IMG/VR virus record: IMGVR_UViG_3300037504_000149 | Reading direction: 5' to 3' (one strand) | DNA: 64,000 nt | Source of the DNA: a virus | Taxonomy: Duplodnaviria > Caudoviricetes | Shown here: in pieces, positions 16,021 to 63,083 of the stretch | How positions within the stretch are numbered: the stretch's first letter is position 1 | How the letters are laid out: each line of letters begins with the position of its first letter | Translations under genes and position numbers: made by a program | Notes under the pieces: model-generated | Database searches by the model: none | Seen by the model: the letters and a program-made list of their open reading frames with translations, nothing else | What the model was told of the DNA's origin: nothing

Positions 16021-16866
16021 CTATGGAATTAAATGAATGTATTGACTAAGTGCTTCATTACGTGCCTGATTCTGGGAAACAGTATTACCCATCATATCAG
16101 TAATTCGTTCTAGCGGAACAGTTTGATACGTCATTAACCCACCAATTGTAGATCCTTCTACTCCGCCACTTACTTTAAATTTGTCATACCCTGGACCCTT
16201 TGGGTTACGTCTTACTACCCAAGTTTTCTGATCTATTAATGGTAAGCCTACAAAGTATGCTATAACTTGTGCTGCTCCGGGAGGTATTATAATACCTCTT
16301 TTTTGCATTTCGTAAGCTCGACTTGAATCCCAAAAGTGTAAACGAGGTAACTCCCCATCCGGCATATATACCATGTAAGTAGCGCCTCCTATTCTCCCCG
16401 TACCTCCACACACTTCACATAATGGATCTGCTTCGTTAGATGAATAACTCCAACAAGAACAACGAGTTGTTAATTTACGTTCAAGCATAACAATAGCAGG
16501 CTGCCCATACATATCGTTTGCCATATATACTGAGCGTGCCTGCTGTAATGCATTCTGATAAACAAATCTACTTTTAAATTTTTTCAGTGGATCATAAGTG
16601 TATTCTTTCTCGTAATTGTCTAGTAATTCTCCGTTTAATATTGGTGATACGTTGTAGGTTACTGGCTCATATATATTTTTTACAAAATCTCTAAATAAGT
16701 ATGTTTGAACTGGTCCTATAGGTATGCGTGGTTTTGACCCATATGTAGCATATACCATATACCCATCCCACTTAGAATGAGCCTCGTCTTCTATATACAG
16801 ATCTAAGGCACCATGATAAGTGTTTTCGTCCATTACTAAAGCTGGATTGTGCACGTATAAGTTCAT
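16021..16866 (-). CDS. Neck / head-closure protein with Zn finger
   Basis: RCSCW...DPLCEVCGGTG Cys4 motif in the neck-gene position. Confidence 0.55.
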   Translation of the reverse strand: MNLYVHNPALVMDENTYHGALDLYIEDEAHSKWDGYMVYATYGSKPRIPIGPVQTYLFRDFVKNIYEPVTYNVSPILNGELLDNYEKEYTYDPLKKFKSRFVYQNALQQARSVYMANDMYGQPAIVMLERKLTTRCSCWSYSSNEADPLCEVCGGTGRIGGATYMVYMPDGELPRLHFWDSSRAYEMQKRGIIIPPGAAQVIAYFVGLPLIDQKTWVVRRNPKGPGYDKFKVSGGVEGSTIGGLMTYQTVPLERITDMMGNTVSQNQARNEALSQYIHLIP

Positions 16867-18356
16867 TATATTTTTGTTTGTAGTAACGATTTAAGTACGT
16901 GTGTTTCAAATAATTGTTTCTTCCAACTTATTGTCATGGTTCTAGCATGCATAGATACATCAGGACGGGGAAAATCATTAAAGTAGTTATATAATATAAA
17001 CGCGTCGATATCTCCCGCATATTGCAGAATATCAGTAGCGGCTGACGCCGCAGAACGGAAGCGTAGATGTTTAGCTTGTCTGTCTGATATACCTAAACAA
17101 TTTGTAGGGCAAACTAATATACAAGCACTAAATCCAAGTATAATAGATTGTTCTCCAGAATCTAAAACTTCATTTATAGCTCTTTCAAGCTCTTCTAATC
17201 TATCACTAGCAAAATAGTATTTATTGTTATCATTACTATAGTTTATTCTTTTCTTTTCATGCCCTTCGGGCTGTTCAACATTTAATGTAAAGTATCGTCT
17301 AATAAACTTTTTAGCATTTTTACGTATCCTTTCTTCTTCTTTACTATCAATACCTGGTGTGTTTACCCAATTGCCTAACTCATCTGCTTCAGCTTCAAAA
17401 TATGTACGTGTAATTTGTTTTAAATCTTCTTCATTATTTACATCGGGATTTTCTTCAACAACTTCCTGTAAGTATTTTATAGCTTCTCCTACTTCAGGTC
17501 CAGATTTTATATTTCCTATTTCCATTATATCATAACCAGATATATTTAAATCATTTTTAGATGATTGCTGAGGGTCTCTGTCAACAGTTTCTATACGCTT
17601 CGCTAATTCATCTATCAAGCTGCAATCACCATCGTCTAAATGGGCCAACGAATCCGCTCTAGCTAAATCTAACAACGCTTCTACGTTTTCTTCTCCTACA
17701 CGATTTATAAATCTTCTTACAGCAGCATCTTTCCATTGACCATTATAACCTATCATATGGTTACCAATCATACACGTTACAAAATCTATAAATTCTTCGT
17801 CATAACCTAAGTTAGAGAGTATGTATTTAGCCTTTGCTGCTGAAAAATCTTCATGTGCAGGAAATGAGTATTCTCCGGTAGCTAAATTATCTGTTCTAGT
17901 TTCTGGTTTTCCTATATCATGTAGTAGTGCTGACCACCTTAAACCTACATCATCTTTAGGAGTATAATCACATGCTTTAAGTAAATGCATAAATACATCA
18001 TATTTATGGTGGCTATTTTGCTCTACACCTTTACATTCCTGTAATTCTGGTAATAAATGTTCTAGTAATCCAGTTTCAGCAAACAATTTGATTGCTTTGG
18101 ACGGCGTGTCCATACTTAAGCATTGTTCCCAAATTTCCCTTTTCTTTTCTGGTGTCCACGAGCTAGCTATAATTGCATGATCTTTTATAGCTTTAATATC
18201 ATCGTCTGCTAGCTCACAATCATTCGCTCCTGCACGAACACACGCCTCGTACATAAGATCTGGTACGTTTAGATATGTAAAATACGGCTCAACTAGTATA
18301 GAGGCTACTCGGCGTCCATCAAGCATTTCTGTGATTTGAAAATGTTCTCGGCTCAT
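16866..18356 (-). CDS. HD-domain phosphohydrolase derived from a CCA-adding enzyme, lacking the nucleotidyltransferase head
   Basis: GLLEHLLPEL..C.GVEQNSHHKYDVFMH, ALLHDIGKP, H.DFSA, HM and ARAD motifs; CCA-type tail LNISGYDIM...GPEVG; no GGAVRD or DxD. Confidence 0.8.
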   Translation of the reverse strand: MSREHFQITEMLDGRRVASILVEPYFTYLNVPDLMYEACVRAGANDCELADDDIKAIKDHAIIASSWTPEKKREIWEQCLSMDTPSKAIKLFAETGLLEHLLPELQECKGVEQNSHHKYDVFMHLLKACDYTPKDDVGLRWSALLHDIGKPETRTDNLATGEYSFPAHEDFSAAKAKYILSNLGYDEEFIDFVTCMIGNHMIGYNGQWKDAAVRRFINRVGEENVEALLDLARADSLAHLDDGDCSLIDELAKRIETVDRDPQQSSKNDLNISGYDIMEIGNIKSGPEVGEAIKYLQEVVEENPDVNNEEDLKQITRTYFEAEADELGNWVNTPGIDSKEEERIRKNAKKFIRRYFTLNVEQPEGHEKKRINYSNDNNKYYFASDRLEELERAINEVLDSGEQSIILGFSACILVCPTNCLGISDRQAKHLRFRSAASAATDILQYAGDIDAFILYNYFNDFPRPDVSMHARTMTISWKKQLFETHVLKSLLQTKI

Positions 18357-26327: not shown

Positions 26328-26656
26328 TGGAAGATAACGAAAAAACATTAACTGAAGGTACTAAATATGATGAAGGTAAATTACCTATTTACCTACTACC
26401 TAGTAAACCATTAGAGATAATTACCGAAGTTCTACAATTTGGTGCAGAAAAATACACCCCTCATAATTGGCGTAAAGGGATGAAGTGGAGTCGTTTAATC
26501 TCTGCGATAATGAGACACTTACTAGCGTGGAAGGAGGGGGAGGATGTTGATCCAGAGACCGGTATTTCCCATTTAGGGCATATCGGCTGCGATGTTTTGT
26601 TTTTATTAGAGTATGAAGCTAGGGGATTAGGCGAAGATGATAGGTATAAAGTTTAA
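26327..26656 (+). CDS. dATP/dGTP diphosphohydrolase-domain protein (DUF5664-like)
   Basis: KYDEGK...LLP...VLQFGAEKY..HNWRKG...RHLLAW..GEDVDPETGISHL.H. Confidence 0.8.
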   Translation: MEDNEKTLTEGTKYDEGKLPIYLLPSKPLEIITEVLQFGAEKYTPHNWRKGMKWSRLISAIMRHLLAWKEGEDVDPETGISHLGHIGCDVLFLLEYEARGLGEDDRYKV

Positions 26657-27036
26657 TCGTCTATCCATTCATTATGAAGTTTTCTAAGGGCATCTGTCCA
26701 AGTACCGGGTTGATATGCTGATTTTTCGGGATCCATAGTATATTCATTTCCAAAACGTTCCGCGTGTGCTAATATAACTTCCCATTGTGCATCAGTGGGA
26801 GGTTTAGTGCTTAAATATCCTGCGTGACATATTCTTATCCACCCTAAACTTTCAAGTGTAGACTCTACATCCTCCCCATAATACTGATCAATTATGTCTT
26901 CTTCTATGATTTCATGCTGCCCATAATCACTCAATTCATAGTCTCCATTGGGGGAGAGCCACCCATACATAAATCCCATATCCCAATAATACTCCGTGTC
27001 ATCGTTTATATATGCAGTATATACTAAATATATCAT
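26653..27036 (-). CDS. Small paralogue family member 1 (W-x-x-PNG / H / GW-x-R)
   Basis: GWLSPNGDY...GQH...LESLGWIRI..AGYL; similar to 35025..35402 and 36996..37373. Confidence 0.65.
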   Translation of the reverse strand: MIYLVYTAYINDDTEYYWDMGFMYGWLSPNGDYELSDYGQHEIIEEDIIDQYYGEDVESTLESLGWIRICHAGYLSTKPPTDAQWEVILAHAERFGNEYTMDPEKSAYQPGTWTDALRKLHNEWIDD

Positions 27037-27037
27037 T

Positions 27038-28525
27038 TTATTCTCCCAAACTATCTTGTATTGTATTTATTATACTGTTATTAGTTTCTATTGATAATAC
27101 GTATTTTAAAAACTCTTTATAATGATCTGAAAATTGTAAAGCTTCTTCAACGATTGTTTCTTTGGCATAATAATCGTCAGCTAAAATATACCAATATTTC
27201 ATTGCTGTGTTAGATAATTTTGGAATTAATACCGATAAACATTCAAAATCACTATATCCAGGATCTACATCTCTAAGTTTTTGCCCAATATATGTTACCA
27301 GCTCAGGGAATCTATTAACAATACTGGCTCTAATATTTACTAAGCCTTCCAATATACGATCATTATCAGTATCTCGGTATATTTCATCCCAATAACGCAT
27401 ATTAATCGCATCAAAATATTTATCTACTATATCTCTTCTTTCCTCACTATAAGGTTTGTATTTCATATCTTCATTATGCACAAGTATATCTAACATTAGT
27501 TGCCCATTGAGTTGTTCAGTTGCCCAAGAATCGTATATATTTTCTTCCTCTGTATTAACAAATGTAGTATATGTATCAAACTCCCACCCCTCACTTCCAA
27601 AGTTATCTAGTATTCTTTTAGCACATGATAATGTAGTTCCATGATAATACGTAAACCCTTCTATATCCTTATATACTGGATTTTCCCATCCTGTGGACAC
27701 TTCGTTATTTTGGGATATTATATCTACTTTCTTTATCCATCCATCAGGGATGGTATCTCCATATATAGTTTGAGCCATAGATTCTTCTAATAGTTTAACT
27801 ATTATTGGCATTACAGCTTGTTGTATTACACTTTCCCACACATTATACGGAAACTGCTTTATATTTTCTACTACTAGCCAAACTATATGATTAACTAATG
27901 ATTCCGCGTCTTCCATAGTTACTACTGAGAATTCTTCGTCTACATGTGTCCCTGGTGTAGGAGTAAATGTCGATACATCCTTATAGTCCCTATCTGGGAA
28001 AGTAGTTATTGTTGTATATAGATTACCTAAAAACTCATCGTATATAGCGTAAAGTTCTGTATTATAATTTGAATTATCCTTTGATATTATACTATCCAGT
28101 CTATCTAAAATAACTTCCTCATTATCTGTTTCACTATATTCGTGTATCAACTCATCGATAAAGTAGAAAATTGCTCTATGTATTGCACCTGCCACCATAT
28201 CAACATCTTGATCTATTTTATAAGGATTTTCTTCCTCATCATATATAGGTACATTTATGTGTATTATTGCTCCTAGATCTGTAAATTTACCACCATAGTC
28301 CATAATATGATGATGCTTACTGTTTCTGTCACTCCCCAACATTTTATATAGCGCATATCTATGTGCTACATTGTAATCTGTTGTAATATTTACCCCTCCA
28401 AATTTATCAAAAAGATCCATAGAATCAGGTGACGTATATCTAAGATTACTTTTAGGTAGCGTGGCATCTAATTCTGGAGTATAAGTGGGATAGATGGGGT
28501 CGGCTGTGCGAATAAAATAAATCAT
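27038..28525 (-). CDS. Putative circularly permuted ADP-ribosyltransferase-fold protein B
   Basis: GVNITTDYNVAHRYA, AIIHINV and QTIYGDTIPDGWI precede YYHGTTLSCAKRIL. Confidence 0.55.
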   Translation of the reverse strand: MIYFIRTADPIYPTYTPELDATLPKSNLRYTSPDSMDLFDKFGGVNITTDYNVAHRYALYKMLGSDRNSKHHHIMDYGGKFTDLGAIIHINVPIYDEEENPYKIDQDVDMVAGAIHRAIFYFIDELIHEYSETDNEEVILDRLDSIISKDNSNYNTELYAIYDEFLGNLYTTITTFPDRDYKDVSTFTPTPGTHVDEEFSVVTMEDAESLVNHIVWLVVENIKQFPYNVWESVIQQAVMPIIVKLLEESMAQTIYGDTIPDGWIKKVDIISQNNEVSTGWENPVYKDIEGFTYYHGTTLSCAKRILDNFGSEGWEFDTYTTFVNTEEENIYDSWATEQLNGQLMLDILVHNEDMKYKPYSEERRDIVDKYFDAINMRYWDEIYRDTDNDRILEGLVNIRASIVNRFPELVTYIGQKLRDVDPGYSDFECLSVLIPKLSNTAMKYWYILADDYYAKETIVEEALQFSDHYKEFLKYVLSIETNNSIINTIQDSLGE

Positions 28526-28532
28526 ATTTTCC

Positions 28533-28561
28533 TTGACAAAAATTTAGTTGTGTGCTAAAAT
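28533..28561 (+). promoter_or_regulatory. Sigma70-type promoter TTGACA-N17-(TGc)TAAAAT
   Basis: Perfect -35, 17-bp spacer and extended -10. Confidence 0.75.
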
Positions 28562-28625
28562 TAGCTTATGCGAGTAGGAATCACACATTATTTAAACGAC
28601 TTTGTATACATTATGAGGTTATAAT

Positions 28626-29543
28626 ATGTCTACTTCAAACTTCTTGTACAGTATTCCTGAGTTAACTATATTTAACTCATTTACAGGTAATTATGAAACA
28701 CTTCCTAAAAGTGATAAGTTATGGAATATAAAACCAGTATTCACCACCCCATATACATTAACATCTTTACGTACTATATATTTTTCACAATTATTATGTA
28801 ATATAATGGAAAATCTTAAATACAAATGTTGCTCACTAACTATTCCTGTTATTAATAACTGGTTAAAATCTTTATTACACTATGAGAACAACAATAATCA
28901 GTTGGACGATACATCTGATACATTATATATAGTTGGTAAAGATAAAATAGATAGCATTGATATTACTAAGTATTCTAGTGCAACCAGTAAATTAATTGTT
29001 GTGGAAAGTCTTAATCTATACCATTATGAAGGTATGCCTGTAGTAAATATTATGTTAAGTTTACAGGAAAATACATTACTTAAATTTCCTAACATCGTAA
29101 AACTACTATTAATGTCATCTACAATGGTAGCACATTATACTCAAGCATATAATGCATATATAGATGGGGTTACAAATTTCTTTGATAATTGTGTTAATTT
29201 AGATAATATTACCGATAATGATGCAGTGTATAATATTTTAGCTGATCTTCATGTAGAGGAAGTAGACCCAAACATTGTTTATACATTATCGTCTAGTTTA
29301 GATAATTTACATAGTATTACTGATATGGGTAGCTTTTTAGATCATACAATTAGGTATACATATAAGTATAAATTACATGATCTGTACGATACCTTAGTTA
29401 AACGCGCCGAAGAAATATGCCCTTATTATAAAGTTGTAGATAATACGTTAAACCCTATCGGTGTAGAAAAGTCTTCTTATCCTCCTCTAGTAGAATGGCC
29501 CATACCCTTTCCTATACCCTTTCCTAAACACTTTATGTTGTAG
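28626..29543 (+). CDS. Hypothetical protein, possibly a degenerate CysRS-like class I synthetase fold
   Basis: LTIFNSFTGNYETLP...SLRTIYFSQLLCNIMENLKYK resembles the CysRS N-terminus, but HIGH and KMSKS are absent. Confidence 0.35.
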   Translation: MSTSNFLYSIPELTIFNSFTGNYETLPKSDKLWNIKPVFTTPYTLTSLRTIYFSQLLCNIMENLKYKCCSLTIPVINNWLKSLLHYENNNNQLDDTSDTLYIVGKDKIDSIDITKYSSATSKLIVVESLNLYHYEGMPVVNIMLSLQENTLLKFPNIVKLLLMSSTMVAHYTQAYNAYIDGVTNFFDNCVNLDNITDNDAVYNILADLHVEEVDPNIVYTLSSSLDNLHSITDMGSFLDHTIRYTYKYKLHDLYDTLVKRAEEICPYYKVVDNTLNPIGVEKSSYPPLVEWPIPFPIPFPKHFML

Positions 29544-30543
29544 CTTGTGTAGCTCGTTCTAGTGTAGTTCCATGATACCTTACATTTCTTGTATTAATTA
29601 TGTGATCTATGTTATCTTCATAATCCTCATTTCGATATATTTCAATAAACTCAGTAGTATATTTTCCATAAATAGTTTCCATATCGCTCATAGTTCGGTA
29701 TGGTGCTGAAGTTAAATATTCTTCAAAATCAAAACCTTCAAAAGATACTTTATAAATATTTATAATATGCTCAGCTTCTATGTCACTAGTATAACGTTCT
29801 TGTACGTATCCTGAAGTTTGTAGTTGTTTAACATCAGTACTTATTTCAAAAGAAGTTAATAGTTCATATAACCATTTAGAAGCTGTTTCCAGTAATTCAA
29901 CTACTTGATCTTGATAGTCATTGTTGTGTAGATAATCTAAATTTATACGTTCTAGATACCCTATTAAAGATCTACTAAACTTCTCTATACGGCCTCCCTT
30001 CCTGTACCTTTCTATCCCACCTAACCATTCTTTAATATAGTTTATATTCTCAAGTATTATATCCTTCACTTCTGTTATGCGTTCCTCAGTGGAAGTATTA
30101 GATAGTATAATAGCTGCTTTATCTATATTATCTAATAGTTTCTCTAAATAATATTTTGCGTCTTCAATCTCTCCGCTAACCATATAAGGGTAATTTTCTA
30201 TATCTTGTGGTGTATATGGCTGATAATAAGCATACTCATCAACTACTTTTGTATCTATATCAATATCTAAAAAATCTTTGTATGGTCTTATATCTATAGA
30301 TATTACAACAGGTTCTGAATATCGCTCATCATTCATGTAATCAATGAATGTACGTTGCACGGCATAAAACCCTGCTGATTGCATGGCTTCTTCTATGCTA
30401 CCTTTAGGATTTATAACATGTACCCCTACAACATCTTCAGGATTGTTCTCGATATGTGTCATTATATCCCCACCACCTGGGTCATTACGTTTGGTATTCT
30501 CGGGCGGGTTACTGTATAACGGTTCTGATATAAAATATAGCAT
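29533..30543 (-). CDS. Putative circularly permuted ADP-ribosyltransferase-fold protein A
   Basis: GVHV...AGFYA, PVVISIDI and QERYTSDIEAEHI, then a C-terminal RYHGTTLERA. Confidence 0.5.
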   Translation of the reverse strand: MLYFISEPLYSNPPENTKRNDPGGGDIMTHIENNPEDVVGVHVINPKGSIEEAMQSAGFYAVQRTFIDYMNDERYSEPVVISIDIRPYKDFLDIDIDTKVVDEYAYYQPYTPQDIENYPYMVSGEIEDAKYYLEKLLDNIDKAAIILSNTSTEERITEVKDIILENINYIKEWLGGIERYRKGGRIEKFSRSLIGYLERINLDYLHNNDYQDQVVELLETASKWLYELLTSFEISTDVKQLQTSGYVQERYTSDIEAEHIINIYKVSFEGFDFEEYLTSAPYRTMSDMETIYGKYTTEFIEIYRNEDYEDNIDHIINTRNVRYHGTTLERATQATT

Positions 30544-30557
30544 TAGTTATCCTTATA

Positions 30558-30783
30558 TTATAGCAATGTCAAATCGTCTTCTGTAATTTCACCAATACCT
30601 ATCTGTTTAAGTAGCCAAAATGTATAGCTACCGCCTTCTCCTGTAGGATCGAAACTATTTACCCCCTAATAAATTCTTCAGCTTCTTCCTCAGTATTTAT
30701 TTCAGGATAAGTACTGGCTTAATCATTTTAGGTAACTGATCTTCAAAATCTGCTGTATATTCTTTAAGAGTAAAATATATCAT
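30558..30783 (-). pseudogene. Frameshifted remnant of a DPT-motif gene with an MIYF N-terminus
   Basis: Three frames read MIYFTLKEYTADFEDQLPKMI / ASTYPEINTEEEAEEFIRG / VNSFDPTGEGGSYTFWLLKQI; the last matches QYDPTGTSYNHWLIVQV in ORF 31948..34092. Confidence 0.55.
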
Positions 30784-31958
30784 TATTTATTTTCCTCTAT
30801 AATACGTTCTAGTTCTTCATGTTGATCTAGAGAAGGATTTTCTATAACTCTATCTAGAAGTTCATTAAGTATAATTCCTACCATTCTGCCTTGTGGAACA
30901 CCTAAACTTATAACATCACTACCATCTACCTCTAAATCTTTAACTTGTAAAGGTATATCTTCCTGTAGTATAAATTGTATACCTTTCTGAACATCTTCAT
31001 ATACAGATGGCTCTGTTTCTATCCTATATATTTCTAATATATCATCAGCATTGTCTCTACCTACATTACGCATTAATTGGTTAGGATCATTATCAATACC
31101 TGGATAATTGTCTAAATAGTTTAATACTTTTCTAATTACTTTATTAGGATATCGTAATTTATTTAAGGTCTCATCTGCTCTTTCTTTTACTGGACTTAAA
31201 AATATAGCTAAGCGAACTTCTATACTGTTAGGTGCTTGCTCAATCTTATTACCTATATCAGTTATATTAGCTGGGTAATTTTCTACTATATTATCTAATA
31301 AACCTGTTACACTTAAATAATTAAGCATTGTTGTAGGTTTTTCATATAGTAAACCTTTAGTAAACTCAGTATTTATACGCTCGATTGCCGGTTGTGTTAT
31401 ATTCGTTTGTTGGATAGCTGCCAGCAATTCATCATCTATTTCAAAATTAAATTTAGCTGCTTGTCTACAAGCTCTATAAGCTCGTAATCCGTCCTCTAAG
31501 AGCCTTTCTTCGGCTGAGCCTACCGCACGTATTACTCCCTCCTCTAAGTCCTCTCTACCGTTGAATGGGTCCGTTAGAGAGCCATCGACAAGGTTAACAG
31601 CCATCGCATTTATAGTGAAGTCACGACGTGCTAAATCTGGTACAATATCATCTACGAATTCTACACTGTCTGGTCTGCGTCCATCCGTATAATCACCTTC
31701 AGTGCGGAACGTAGTTATTTCTATTGGTTCGTCATTATAAATAACAGTTACTGTTCCATGTTGTAATCCAGTAGGATGTATGGTTATACCTGCACTTTCA
31801 TACACTTCCATTACAGTTTGGGGATTGGCGTTTGTTGCTAGGTCATAATCATCAGGGTTTATACCAAGCAACATATCCCTAACTGCTCCACCTACTAAGT
31901 AGCAGGAGTAGTTAGCTTGTATAAGAATCTGTGCAACTTGTTTGTAATTATTCATCAT
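30783..31958 (-). CDS. cca: Class II CCA-adding tRNA nucleotidyltransferase (no HD domain)
   Basis: YLVGGAVRD..LG..PDDYDLAT, HGTV, EITTFR.EG.Y.DGRRP (flexible loop), DLARRDFTINAMA, EDGLR (EDxxR), ERI. Confidence 0.92.
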   Translation of the reverse strand: MMNNYKQVAQILIQANYSCYLVGGAVRDMLLGINPDDYDLATNANPQTVMEVYESAGITIHPTGLQHGTVTVIYNDEPIEITTFRTEGDYTDGRRPDSVEFVDDIVPDLARRDFTINAMAVNLVDGSLTDPFNGREDLEEGVIRAVGSAEERLLEDGLRAYRACRQAAKFNFEIDDELLAAIQQTNITQPAIERINTEFTKGLLYEKPTTMLNYLSVTGLLDNIVENYPANITDIGNKIEQAPNSIEVRLAIFLSPVKERADETLNKLRYPNKVIRKVLNYLDNYPGIDNDPNQLMRNVGRDNADDILEIYRIETEPSVYEDVQKGIQFILQEDIPLQVKDLEVDGSDVISLGVPQGRMVGIILNELLDRVIENPSLDQHEELERIIEENK

Positions 31959-35024: not shown

Positions 35025-35402
35025 TTAAAGTATGTCTTGAAGAGTACTATTAAGTATACCACTATCTAAAACACCTACACCACCGTCAGGTGTTTTGTAG
35101 GTTGTATTTTTATATAAATCATAATGCTCATTAATAATATATAATTGTTCTTGTGTAGCTTTTTTACCAGGCTGCATCAAATACCCAAAACAACTAACTT
35201 TAACCCATCCTTGATTTTCTAAATATTCTTCTGGATTATTAATAGAGTTTACTTTAGCTAATCCTTGATCTATTAGATCATAAACAATATGAAAAGTTGC
35301 ATCTATATGTCCAGCATATTCAACTGGATGATAATTACCATTAGGTTCCAGCCACATGAATAATGGTATTTTATGTTCATTAACACATATAAAATACATC
35401 AT
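35025..35402 (-). CDS. Small paralogue family member 2
   Basis: MWLEPNGNY...YAGH...LENQGWVKVS.FGYL. Confidence 0.65.
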   Translation of the reverse strand: MMYFICVNEHKIPLFMWLEPNGNYHPVEYAGHIDATFHIVYDLIDQGLAKVNSINNPEEYLENQGWVKVSCFGYLMQPGKKATQEQLYIINEHYDLYKNTTYKTPDGGVGVLDSGILNSTLQDIL

Positions 35403-36995: not shown

Positions 36996-37373
36996 CTACA
37001 GTATTTTATTTAATGTGTAATCTAATCTATCCTTACTAAAGCGTATATTCATGGGACCATAATAATCAATAGACATGACTTTGTTGCAATACTTATCATA
37101 ATGAGCCATTATTACTTCAAATTGGTCATCGTTAATATGTAATCCATTAAGCATAAGATATCCAGCGTCAGTAACTCTTACATACCCTAATTGTTCTAGT
37201 AATAATTCAGGATCTTTATTGATAATAGATGTGTCCCCTGAATCAACCATCTTACTTACTATTGCCGCAGCTTTCTCACCATGTTCAGCATAATTCACAG
37301 GGTAGTAATCACCGTTTGGTGCGACCCACATAAAAGGTGGAATATAGTCATTAGTACAAATAAAATATATCAT
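36996..37373 (-). CDS. Small paralogue family member 3
   Basis: MWVAPNGDY...YAEH...LEQLGYVRVTDAGYL. Confidence 0.65.
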   Translation of the reverse strand: MIYFICTNDYIPPFMWVAPNGDYYPVNYAEHGEKAAAIVSKMVDSGDTSIINKDPELLLEQLGYVRVTDAGYLMLNGLHINDDQFEVIMAHYDKYCNKVMSIDYYGPMNIRFSKDRLDYTLNKIL

Positions 37374-60080: not shown

Positions 60081-63000
60081 ATGAAGCCGGGATATGAGTG
60101 TGAACACTGTAAACGATGTGGTTTAGCGTGTGAAGGTAATCGTAATAACTTTATGCCCATGACTCAGGGTAGTAATTCAAATTCTATTTTAGTAGTAGGA
60201 GAAGCTCCGGGAGCTAACGAGGATCGTATAGGACGACAGTTTGTCGGTAAATCCGGTGAAAAATTACGAGAAATACTAGATGTAGTATTGGATGGTGAGC
60301 ATTCATCTGGTAAAACTATGGATGATGTAGCCTTTACTAATGCTTGTAGATGTAGACCACCTAAGAATGCTACTCCTAGTTTAGTGCAGATAAATGCATG
60401 TAGACATTTCTTGTATCAGGATATACTAGAAGCAGATCCTATATTGTTAATAGCGGTAGGGACTGTTCCTGTAAAAGCCTTAATCAATAAGACAATTAAA
60501 ATTGGAAACACACATGGTACTATAGAACGGGTAAAAGTAACTGGTGTAGATTCAGATGGTGAAGATATAGTTCGTTACTACCCCTGCCTCATCACATACC
60601 ATCCCGCAGCTACTTTTTACAGTAAGCATATAACACCAGAGGATATTGGACGAGACATTATAGCTGGTGTTAATTTGATTAATGTTAAGCAGTCTGGTGT
60701 GGAAACTGATTATGTACTTGTAGACAACGAGCAAAAGCTGGCTAAGTGTAAAAAGGAAATGCTATCAGCCGAATGGATAGCTTTCGATATCGAAACAACA
60801 GGGTTGTCTCCTTTCTTAGATGATGACCCTCGTGTATTAGGAGTATCATTAAGCGTTGCAAAAAACAAAGCTTACTTCATACCTGTTGATCACGATGAGT
60901 CTCCGTGGAAGACTAAAGAGGAAGACTTATTAACAGGTGTAGTTAATAATAATGATTTTATTATAGGGGAGCTTAAGGATATACTTGAGAATGATATACC
61001 TAAAGTTGGTCATAATGTTAAATTTGATTGTATGTATTTAAAAACAGCATTAGATATAAACCCTACTAATGTAGAGTATGATACAATGCTGGCTTATTAT
61101 ATGTTAGATGAGCGTCATAGAGCTACATCACTGAAAGACTTAGCGGTACTTTATACTAATATACCTAATTATGAAGATCCGTTGTATATCTATTTTGATA
61201 AAGAATTAGATGGTAAGCGAGAATTTGGTAAAGTTCCATTAAATGAATTATATAAGTATGCTTGTGGTGATACAGATGCTACACTACAAGTTATGCATAA
61301 ACTAGATAAAGAATTTGAAAACCTTATAGATGATAAACCTTATACTATATTTAAGAATTTGATGATGCCAGCTTCAGATATGTTAGCTGATGTAGAATGT
61401 AATGGTATGCATACTGATTTTGCGTACTTACTTAATGTTCAGCGGCAGTTTGAAGATGCAGAAGATGAATTACGTCGTAGAATATATAAATTTGAAAGTG
61501 TACAGAAATGTGTATTAGAACATCATTCGGTATTTGCCAAGAATACGTTAAAAATTGCCAGGAATATATATGCTTTAGCTGGGCAAAAGTTTACATTACA
61601 TCAAATATATGATACACATAGTAGGATGTTTAATGTAAATAAAGGTACTGCGCCAGATAAAAAAGCTAAATATAAATGTTTACAGAATATATTAGGTATA
61701 AGTGATGAAACTATATCTATATATAAAAAGCAACGACGCGCAAAGTTAAAAGCTGCAAGAAATGAAGTTGCTTATACCGGGGAGGATATAGGTAGTACAG
61801 AGAAAGTAGTTATAACTAAAGAATATATTGATTTTATAGTTGATAACTATAAGGAAGAAGTTAAACTTGGATCATCTACAAAGAAAGCGGAAATTCTATT
61901 TGATTTTGAACGACTACCACCTGTAAGATTCACAGAAGCAGAAGCACGGAGTACGGATAAGAAAACTCTTGAGGAACTGGCTAATGTAGATTCCATGATG
62001 TTAAACGTACTTGAGTATGAAAAATATATAGACGAAGGGATTCTTGATGATGGTGAAGAAATTCGTGGGAGTAAACTAGCATTAATTTTCCTTATCTATA
62101 GTATTGTATTATCTGCTTTAAGTAAGTCATTGCGGACATTACCGAAATTTATAGATGAAGAGGAGAGAGTACATTCTACATTTAATTTAGCGTTTACAGT
62201 TACAGGACGACTATCTTCCTCTAATCCTAACTTACAGAACATTGCTTCTGATAAGAGAGTTAAAAATATATTTTGCGTTCCTGAAGGTTACCAATTGTTA
62301 CAAGCTGACCTTTCGCAGGCTGAGTTGCGTGTACTCGCAGTAACTACTATGGACAAAAATCTTATTGAATTGTATAAACGGGGGGATGATATCCACAGTA
62401 CTGTAGCTTCAGCTATTTTTAATAAGCCACCTCATGAAATTACGAAAGATGAGCGTCGTCGAGCAAAGACACTTAACTTCGGTATGATCTACGGTATGAT
62501 GGAATCAACATACGCTACACGTGCTGGTATATCAATCGATGAAGCGCGTGAAATGTATAATAGATTCTATGGACAGTTTCCAGGTGTTAGTAAATGGCAT
62601 AAGTATGTTGTGTCTAAAGCACAGGATGAAGGTATAGTACGTTCTGTAGTAGGGAGAATAAGACATACATTCGAATCCACACAAGCTATGAATATGCCTA
62701 TTCAGTCTACTGCCAGTGATTTATTTCTCCTTAGCGTTAATGAATTACATCAGTTTATACATAACGAGTGGAAGCATAGTGGAGTGAAGATTGTCAACTT
62801 AGTACACGATGCTGTGTATTTAGAAGTACCTAATCATCTAGTTAAGGAAGCAGCTATTGTAACTAATAAATTTATGGAAACTCCTATGATTCAGTCTATT
62901 GTAGATTCTGGCGTACCAATTGTATCTGACTTAGAATTAGGTGAACGTTGGGGAAGTCTAAAACCACTATGGATAGTTGACCAGGATTCTGATCTATGGA

Positions 63001-63083
63001 ACAATGGAGAGGACACTTATATAAATAACGTAAGGCTAACGGAACATGAAGAGGAAGGATCACTGTACGTAACTACTAAGTAA
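60081..63083 (+). CDS. polA: Family A DNA polymerase with N-terminal family-4 uracil-DNA glycosylase and 3'-5' exonuclease domains
   Basis: UDG: C..C.L, GEAPG..E, FVG.SG, CRPP.N, YHPA. Exonuclease: FDIETTG, HNVKFD, YACGD. Polymerase: TGRLSS.NPNLQN, DLSQAELR, RAKTLNFGMIYG, IQSTASD, VHD. Confidence 0.93.
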   Translation: MKPGYECEHCKRCGLACEGNRNNFMPMTQGSNSNSILVVGEAPGANEDRIGRQFVGKSGEKLREILDVVLDGEHSSGKTMDDVAFTNACRCRPPKNATPSLVQINACRHFLYQDILEADPILLIAVGTVPVKALINKTIKIGNTHGTIERVKVTGVDSDGEDIVRYYPCLITYHPAATFYSKHITPEDIGRDIIAGVNLINVKQSGVETDYVLVDNEQKLAKCKKEMLSAEWIAFDIETTGLSPFLDDDPRVLGVSLSVAKNKAYFIPVDHDESPWKTKEEDLLTGVVNNNDFIIGELKDILENDIPKVGHNVKFDCMYLKTALDINPTNVEYDTMLAYYMLDERHRATSLKDLAVLYTNIPNYEDPLYIYFDKELDGKREFGKVPLNELYKYACGDTDATLQVMHKLDKEFENLIDDKPYTIFKNLMMPASDMLADVECNGMHTDFAYLLNVQRQFEDAEDELRRRIYKFESVQKCVLEHHSVFAKNTLKIARNIYALAGQKFTLHQIYDTHSRMFNVNKGTAPDKKAKYKCLQNILGISDETISIYKKQRRAKLKAARNEVAYTGEDIGSTEKVVITKEYIDFIVDNYKEEVKLGSSTKKAEILFDFERLPPVRFTEAEARSTDKKTLEELANVDSMMLNVLEYEKYIDEGILDDGEEIRGSKLALIFLIYSIVLSALSKSLRTLPKFIDEEERVHSTFNLAFTVTGRLSSSNPNLQNIASDKRVKNIFCVPEGYQLLQADLSQAELRVLAVTTMDKNLIELYKRGDDIHSTVASAIFNKPPHEITKDERRRAKTLNFGMIYGMMESTYATRAGISIDEAREMYNRFYGQFPGVSKWHKYVVSKAQDEGIVRSVVGRIRHTFESTQAMNMPIQSTASDLFLLSVNELHQFIHNEWKHSGVKIVNLVHDAVYLEVPNHLVKEAAIVTNKFMETPMIQSIVDSGVPIVSDLELGERWGSLKPLWIVDQDSDLWNNGEDTYINNVRLTEHEEEGSLYVTTK

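Follow-up and report, generated by a model that had tools for sequence, protein, structure and literature searches.

Two neighbouring orphan proteins of an uncultured phage share the motifs [E/Q]TIYG and YHGTTL and are probably distant paralogues of doubtful ADP-ribosyltransferase affinity

The viral record IMGVR_UViG_3300037504_000149 (Caudoviricetes), of which we analysed a stretch of 64,000 nucleotides (nt; hereafter the window) from a contig of about 230 kb, carries on its minus strand two neighbouring genes, A and B, whose products share two short motifs, [E/Q]TIYG and YHGTTL. Gene A occupies positions 29533-30543 and encodes 336 amino acids (aa) with an isoelectric point of 4.45; gene B occupies positions 27038-28525 and encodes 495 aa with an isoelectric point of 4.4. 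Both are real genes for acidic orphan proteins, which are confined to a single small clade of uncultured, approximately 230-kb phages. The shared elements suggest that A and B are probably distant and very diverged paralogues. A first-pass annotation of the region had read both proteins as circularly permuted ADP-ribosyltransferases (ARTs). The likeness to ARTs consists of YHGT and the start of the helix that follows it and goes no further, so that an ART-like core of any kind appears doubtful in either protein, and a circularly permuted one very improbable.

The YHGTTL motif corresponds to residues 294-299 of B (27629-27646, minus strand), where it is invariant in all orthologues, and to residues 323-328 of A (29560-29577, minus strand). 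The underlying DNA contains a 15-mer, TGTAGTTCCATGATA, which is present in exactly two copies in the window (27632-27646 and 29563-29577); both copies are in frame and encode YHGTT (residues 294-298 of B and 323-327 of A). The identity of the 15-mer at the two sites had been pointed out in the first-pass annotation, which located it 3 nt away from its actual positions; the open reading frames of A and B and all peptide strings it quoted are present. Around the 15-mer, 23 of 28 nt are identical. A shared hexapeptide arises by chance in 17 of the 1770 gene pairs of the window, and the use of identical codons for an identical pentapeptide has a probability of about 0.02 under the local codon bias; the 15-mer alone is therefore weak evidence of relationship. 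In A the motif lies at the extreme C-terminus, as had been noticed earlier, and is followed by just 8 residues. Continuation of A past its stop codon by frameshift or read-through was considered and ruled out, as all downstream minus-strand frames are closed.

The second motif lies upstream of the first in both proteins. It reads QTIYG in B (residues 252-256; 27758-27772, minus strand), is invariant in the B family and precedes YHGTTL by 37 residues; in A it reads ETIYG (residues 289-293; 29665-29679, minus strand) and precedes YHGTTL by 29 residues. In its fuller form the motif is AQTIYG in B (251-256) and METIYG in A (288-293). The earlier pairing of the QERYTSD stretch of A with the QTIYGD stretch of B is probably wrong, METIYG being the likely counterpart. 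A single DNA pattern covering both motifs matches exactly A and B within the window, and a search of IMG/VR with this pattern returned just two unrelated chance loci.

The shared elements of A and B are collinear: an MxYFI sequence at residue 1, then [E/Q]TIYG, then YHGTTL 29-37 residues further on. The probability of a shared 6-mer for this pair is about 0.01, and the number of shared 4-mers expected in the collinear upstream zone is 0.03. Conservation within the B family, judged against an orthologue of 36% identity, peaks at residues 1-20, 41-60, 241-270 and 291-310, and three of these peaks (1-20, 241-270 and 291-310) coincide with the elements shared with A. When gaps are penalised loosely, each of the two proteins is the best match of the other among 36 genes of the window, with a z-score of about 4 relative to shuffled sequences and a score 2.5-3 standard deviations above the spread of real unrelated genes. 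The AlphaFold2 models of the two proteins, both of low confidence, display the same coarse layout, with an alpha/beta part at the N-terminus and long helices after it. Distant paralogy is rated as probable because of the second motif, the motif probabilities, the placement of the motifs on conservation peaks and the reciprocal matches under loose gaps.

Several results weigh against this relationship, which the first-pass annotation had taken as given. A BLASTP comparison of A with B gives an E-value of 0.21 and covers the motif only, and hhalign of the two family alignments again aligns the His-Gly-Thr (HGT) motif alone, with a probability of 4%. In HMMER comparisons with filters off, the partner protein scores 0.1 and 1.4 bits, within the noise of other window open reading frames, and A ranks 15th of 100 window open reading frames against the B profile. 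An exhaustive hmmsearch of 1.84 billion representative proteins with the B profile retrieved B's own family only, without A. Under normal gap penalties the z-score of the A-B alignment falls to about 1.2, and even under loose penalties the second-best match of A, an unrelated glycosyltransferase, reaches 3.87 against 3.99 for B. Nor is the N-terminal header specific to A and B, since three other genes of the window carry it; without the N-terminal match, the coincidence of two motifs is not significant window-wide, and is significant only for a neighbouring pair specified in advance.

These negative results would be expected if A and B were unrelated orphans, with the hexapeptide, the 15-mer and TIYG brought about by coincidence under an AT-rich codon bias, and the common N-terminus a regional feature and not a sign of common descent. 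Every standard homology statistic agrees with such an explanation, as do the chance-level sharing of hexapeptides among window genes, the few repeated 15-mers that by our estimate chance alone would produce in AT-rich DNA of 64 kb, and the occurrence of the header in the family of 125- and 127-aa proteins described below. Coincidence does not readily explain, however, why the two genes should be near neighbours on the same strand, why the two motifs should be collinear with similar spacing and both coincide with conservation peaks of the B family, or why A and B should be each other's best loose-gap matches. We consider the absence of any relationship unlikely.

The coding sequences of both genes appear to be longer than deposited. 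The IMG gene calls for B and A begin at internal methionines and give proteins of 460 and 309 aa. The long start of B is preceded by a ribosome-binding site, AGGA, 6 nt 5' of the ATG, and AAGGA lies upstream of the long start of A; the long starts are also called on independent Logan contigs. The first 35 residues of B retain 63% identity in an orthologue with only 36-37% identity overall. On the strength of the ribosome-binding sites, the independent calls and the conserved N-terminus, the long forms are probably the correct ones and the deposited annotations truncated.

Relatives of the two proteins are few. A k-mer-seeded search of 5.8 billion proteins found two clusters of B orthologues, with 85% and 36-37% identity and aligned over the full length including residues 1-35, and a single other cluster of A, with 96% identity and the same length of 336 aa. 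No relatives of A or B were found by tblastn and megablast among 50,697 phage records, no related locus was detected in scans of IMG/VR, GTDB genomes and JGI metagenomes with the B-family alignment, and the neighbouring CCA enzyme, used to scan IMG/VR, likewise led to none.

Conservation along B is uneven and outlines its layout. The first 100 aa or so are conserved and open with the header (residues 1-13, MIYFI...; 28487-28525, minus strand), the most conserved stretch of the B family; the corresponding header of A begins MLYFI (residues 1-13; 30505-30543, minus strand). The N-terminal part of B is followed by a variable insert, predicted to be helical in a low-confidence model (residues 101-245; 27791-28225, minus strand), in which identity to the distant orthologue drops to 21%, compared with about 50% on either side. 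The conserved motif region comes next, residues 293-350 showing 49% identity to the distant orthologue, and the protein ends in a C-terminal domain modelled entirely as helices (residues 356-495; 27041-27460, minus strand), for which A has no counterpart.

The ART reading of these sequences starts from the signature of the first ART strand (beta1), an aromatic residue followed by His-Gly-Thr/Ser and a helix. Both proteins carry it as YHGTTL-x-x-A, invariant in the B family. Searches of Pfam with whole A and B, the distant orthologue and five fragments returned no ART family at E-values up to 10, and sequence searches of NCBIfam, PADLOC, PHROGs and the PDB gave no ART match for A or B. A PDB match to a Psathyrella lectin (E 0.008) was rejected as a motif-level coincidence, in which one short element is repeated in seven propeller blades. 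For direct comparison we built alignments of 112 Arr sequences and 5 KptA sequences. The power of hhalign in this setting is low, the two families comprising just 3 and 2 distinct sequences (effective sequence numbers of 1.6 and 1.0); it aligned residues 293-302 of B to Arr 20-29 and residues 294-308 to KptA 104-118, and no other region. Features from a protein language model place residues 240-360 of B nearest to Arr clusters among named families, and the ten best named matches all belong to the Arr family, with a score of 0.78 that by the calibration of the tool is a lead only, such scores arising by chance a third of the time. The same four residues probably account for this match.

Should A be an ART, permutation is unavoidable, since the C-terminal position of its HGT motif rules out the canonical strand order. 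In the permuted arrangement put forward in the first-pass annotation, both proteins would use NAD+ on protein, DNA or RNA; strands beta2-beta3 and beta5-beta6 would come from the N-terminal elements, and beta1, the HGT strand, would be the last, lying in A at the very C-terminus. The YHGT followed by L-x-x-A fits the beta1-helix signature of such an enzyme, and it is this segment that aligns to KptA and Arr and probably underlies the proximity to Arr in the language-model comparison, itself at chance level. A permuted core, however, should align better once its order is restored. We tested three re-orderings, among them the A and B alignments with the HGT segment first and the N-terminal elements and [E/Q]TIYG after it, and residues 288-355 of B placed before 245-287, and neither the aligned columns (10-15) nor the score (about 21) against KptA and Arr changed, within the low power of hhalign; the check suggested in the annotation thus lends its proposal no support. 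The permutation also finds no ART match in any library, even with fragments, and accommodates poorly an additional conserved N-terminal strand (MIYFI) that precedes the supposed beta2, as well as an invariant Gln at the supposed catalytic position in B. The list of ART motifs can, moreover, be mapped onto B in three incompatible ways: by the proposed permutation, in canonical order from the N-terminal FIHTA strand, or as a unit at residues 250-350, which indicates that the motif matching is unspecific. A full-text literature search, judged by titles and abstracts, returned no permuted ART, and in the papers checked the term circular permutation referred to other domains. We regard permuted ARTs as a highly improbable identity for these proteins.

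Hardly more probable is a partial or differently ordered ART confined to residues 250-350 of B, which would comprise a strand pair at QTIYG, the YHGT strand and helix, a TFVNT helix and a GQLMLDILV strand. A would then be a truncated copy, reduced to a stub that ends with the HGT helix; the cut may have come with the acquisition of the inverted gene. The conservation of B immediately after YHGT, with its strand-helix-strand-helix-strand pattern over residues 293-350, is in line with this arrangement, and A stops where homology to B would continue, at a point abutted by an orphan gene of lower G+C content on the opposite strand. Yet residues 288-355 of B, taken alone or placed before residues 245-287, align to KptA and Arr through the motif only. 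A is also intact and 96% conserved at an identical length of 336 aa in a sister phage, which is unlike decay, and no remnant of a lost C-terminal part is found downstream of it.

Our overall explanation, to which we give an even chance, is that A and B are diverged orphan paralogues with a split core and with motifs lining one pocket. The core would consist of about 100 N-terminal residues and a later segment of 50-100 residues bearing [E/Q]TIYG and YHGTTL, the two parts being separated by a fast-evolving helical insert of 120-150 residues. In B alone these would be followed by residues 309-350, also conserved, and by about 140 residues forming a helical domain. Little other than the two motifs is preserved from A to B, and both lie on the conservation peaks of the B family; they may therefore line a single ligand-binding or catalytic pocket. 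For the ligand of this pocket, an NAD-type, ART-like site is our best single guess, and an unproven one. E289 of A and the invariant Q252 of B, both in [E/Q]TIYG, are candidates for a third catalytic residue, although they stand before the HGT motif; in ARTs this residue is a Glu, or an Asp in Arr, on a strand that comes after the HGT and Tyr elements. The near-invariant residues Y294, H295, T297, Q252 and Y255 of B and Y323, H324, T326, E289 and Y292 of A offer themselves for mutagenesis.

Structure models contribute little to the choice between these explanations. The AlphaFold2 models have mean predicted local distance difference test (pLDDT) scores of 43.6 (B) and 41.3 (A), the strands that matter here score 25-45, and the ESM Atlas (ESMFold) model of B is also poor. 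Residues 356-495 of B, all helices, are the only part modelled with a pLDDT of 56-87. Foldseek and VIA searches, which tested the helical parts alone, returned only generic helical-repeat matches for this C-terminal domain.

The N-terminal header is shared by five minus-strand genes between 26.6 and 37.4 kb, which start with M-[I/L/M]-Y-[F/L]-[I/V]: A, B, a 127-aa gene and two 125-aa genes. The 127-aa gene (26653-27036, minus strand) begins with MIY and starts 1 nt after the stop of B. The two 125-aa genes (35025-35402 and 36996-37373, minus strand) carry a header of the MIYFI type and adjoin ankyrin genes. These three small genes are mutual paralogues, the 127-aa protein being 30-34% identical to the 125-aa proteins. 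B may belong to the same kind of arrangement of a partner plus a large protein as the 125-aa and ankyrin genes. By our estimate, such a header would occur by chance in about 0.01 genes per window. B shares 9 of its first 13 residues with the protein encoded at 36996, and hhalign aligns those 13 columns only (E 0.004); past residue 13, homology of the N-terminal domains of A and B to the 125-aa family finds no support. The header may be the opening strand in a domain common to these proteins, or may serve as an address tag or in the start of translation. Residue 6 of B (28508-28510), the sole variable position within a near-invariant N-terminus of 19 residues, is His in the other three orthologues (FIHTA), whereas two independent samples of this phage have Arg.

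Between A and B lies an orphan gene of 305 aa on the plus strand (28626-29543), which converges on A and overlaps its 3' end by 11 nt. Its product matches no family in Pfam or the other libraries searched. A near-consensus promoter precedes the gene at 28533-28561 (TTGACA, a 17-nt spacer and TAAAAT, with an upstream TG), and the gene lies in the part of the window with the lowest G+C content (0.30). A tandem repeat of about 12 nt at approximately 29503-29527 encodes PIPFPIPFP at the C-terminus of the 305-aa protein.

The genes for the major head protein, the head (maturation) protease and the portal lie at 39-53 kb on the same strand as A and B, and a replication module occupies 54-64 kb. The surroundings of A and B also encode two ankyrin proteins, two proteins resembling CCA enzymes and an RNA ligase. 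The RNA ligase is 7 kb away, and 240 nt separate A from the CCA-adding enzyme gene upstream of it. No tRNA gene was found in the window. The two relatives of CCA-adding enzymes and poly(A) polymerases (16866-18356 and 30783-31958) are 21% identical over 280 aa; one matches the nucleotidyltransferase head domain, and the other the HD domain and tRNA-binding parts, with no head-domain match. In the replication module, positions 60081-63083 encode a family A DNA polymerase in which an N-terminal domain of the uracil-DNA-glycosylase superfamily is fused before the 3'-5' exonuclease domain.

As the evidence stands, A and B represent one more pair of fast-evolving orphan accessory genes, and they show, as a caution, how little it takes to fit lists of ART motifs to an alpha/beta protein. 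Were the ART reading true, a much-studied enzyme fold would gain a new topology, and giant phages a new candidate for a host-modifying or RNA-repair enzyme. In its boldest form, A and B would be the founding members of a circularly permuted ART family, the first of its kind, with the HGT strand supplied from the C-terminal end, and might constitute, together with the three other MIYFI-headed proteins, tagged cargo delivered into the host; we give this proposal very little credence.

Among known systems, Tpt1/KptA (PF01885) resembles A and B in its strand of an aromatic residue, His, Gly and Thr followed by a helix, as seen in the match of B to E. coli KptA. The two differ in that just these 15 columns align, with a probability of 1-7%, and that A and B lack the RNA-binding N-lobe; the PF01885 model, which gives E. 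coli KptA 161 bits, does not match A or B. The motif is, in addition, C-terminal in A, and re-ordering fails to extend the match. Jumbo phages with RNA ligases are described as sometimes encoding KptA (PMC9503650). The window has an RNA ligase and two CCA-enzyme-like genes; neither a 2H phosphoesterase nor a kinase-phosphatase was found among the window genes scanned. Arr (PF12120), the rifampin ADP-ribosyltransferase, is a minimal ART of the H-Y-D type. It shares the YHGT motif and provides the nearest named language-model clusters for B at a chance-level score, and differs in that only 10 columns align and PF12120 finds no match in A or B. Alt, ModA and ModB of phage T4 are ARTs of the R-S-E type, and Alt is packaged and injected. 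A and B differ from them in showing no sequence or profile similarity and in bearing a motif of the H type, not R-S-E. It is the gene neighbourhood that weakly suggests delivery in the virion, as for Alt, or a Tpt1-like part in RNA repair, both ideas raised in the first-pass annotation. Like the T4 enzymes, A and B are phage-encoded accessory proteins; their genes share a strand with the head genes and are situated between the modules for head and tail. The short N-terminal peptide common to neighbouring genes bears a loose resemblance to a tag for capsid targeting, although it is hydrophobic (MIYFI) and does not resemble the sequence that serves this purpose in T4.

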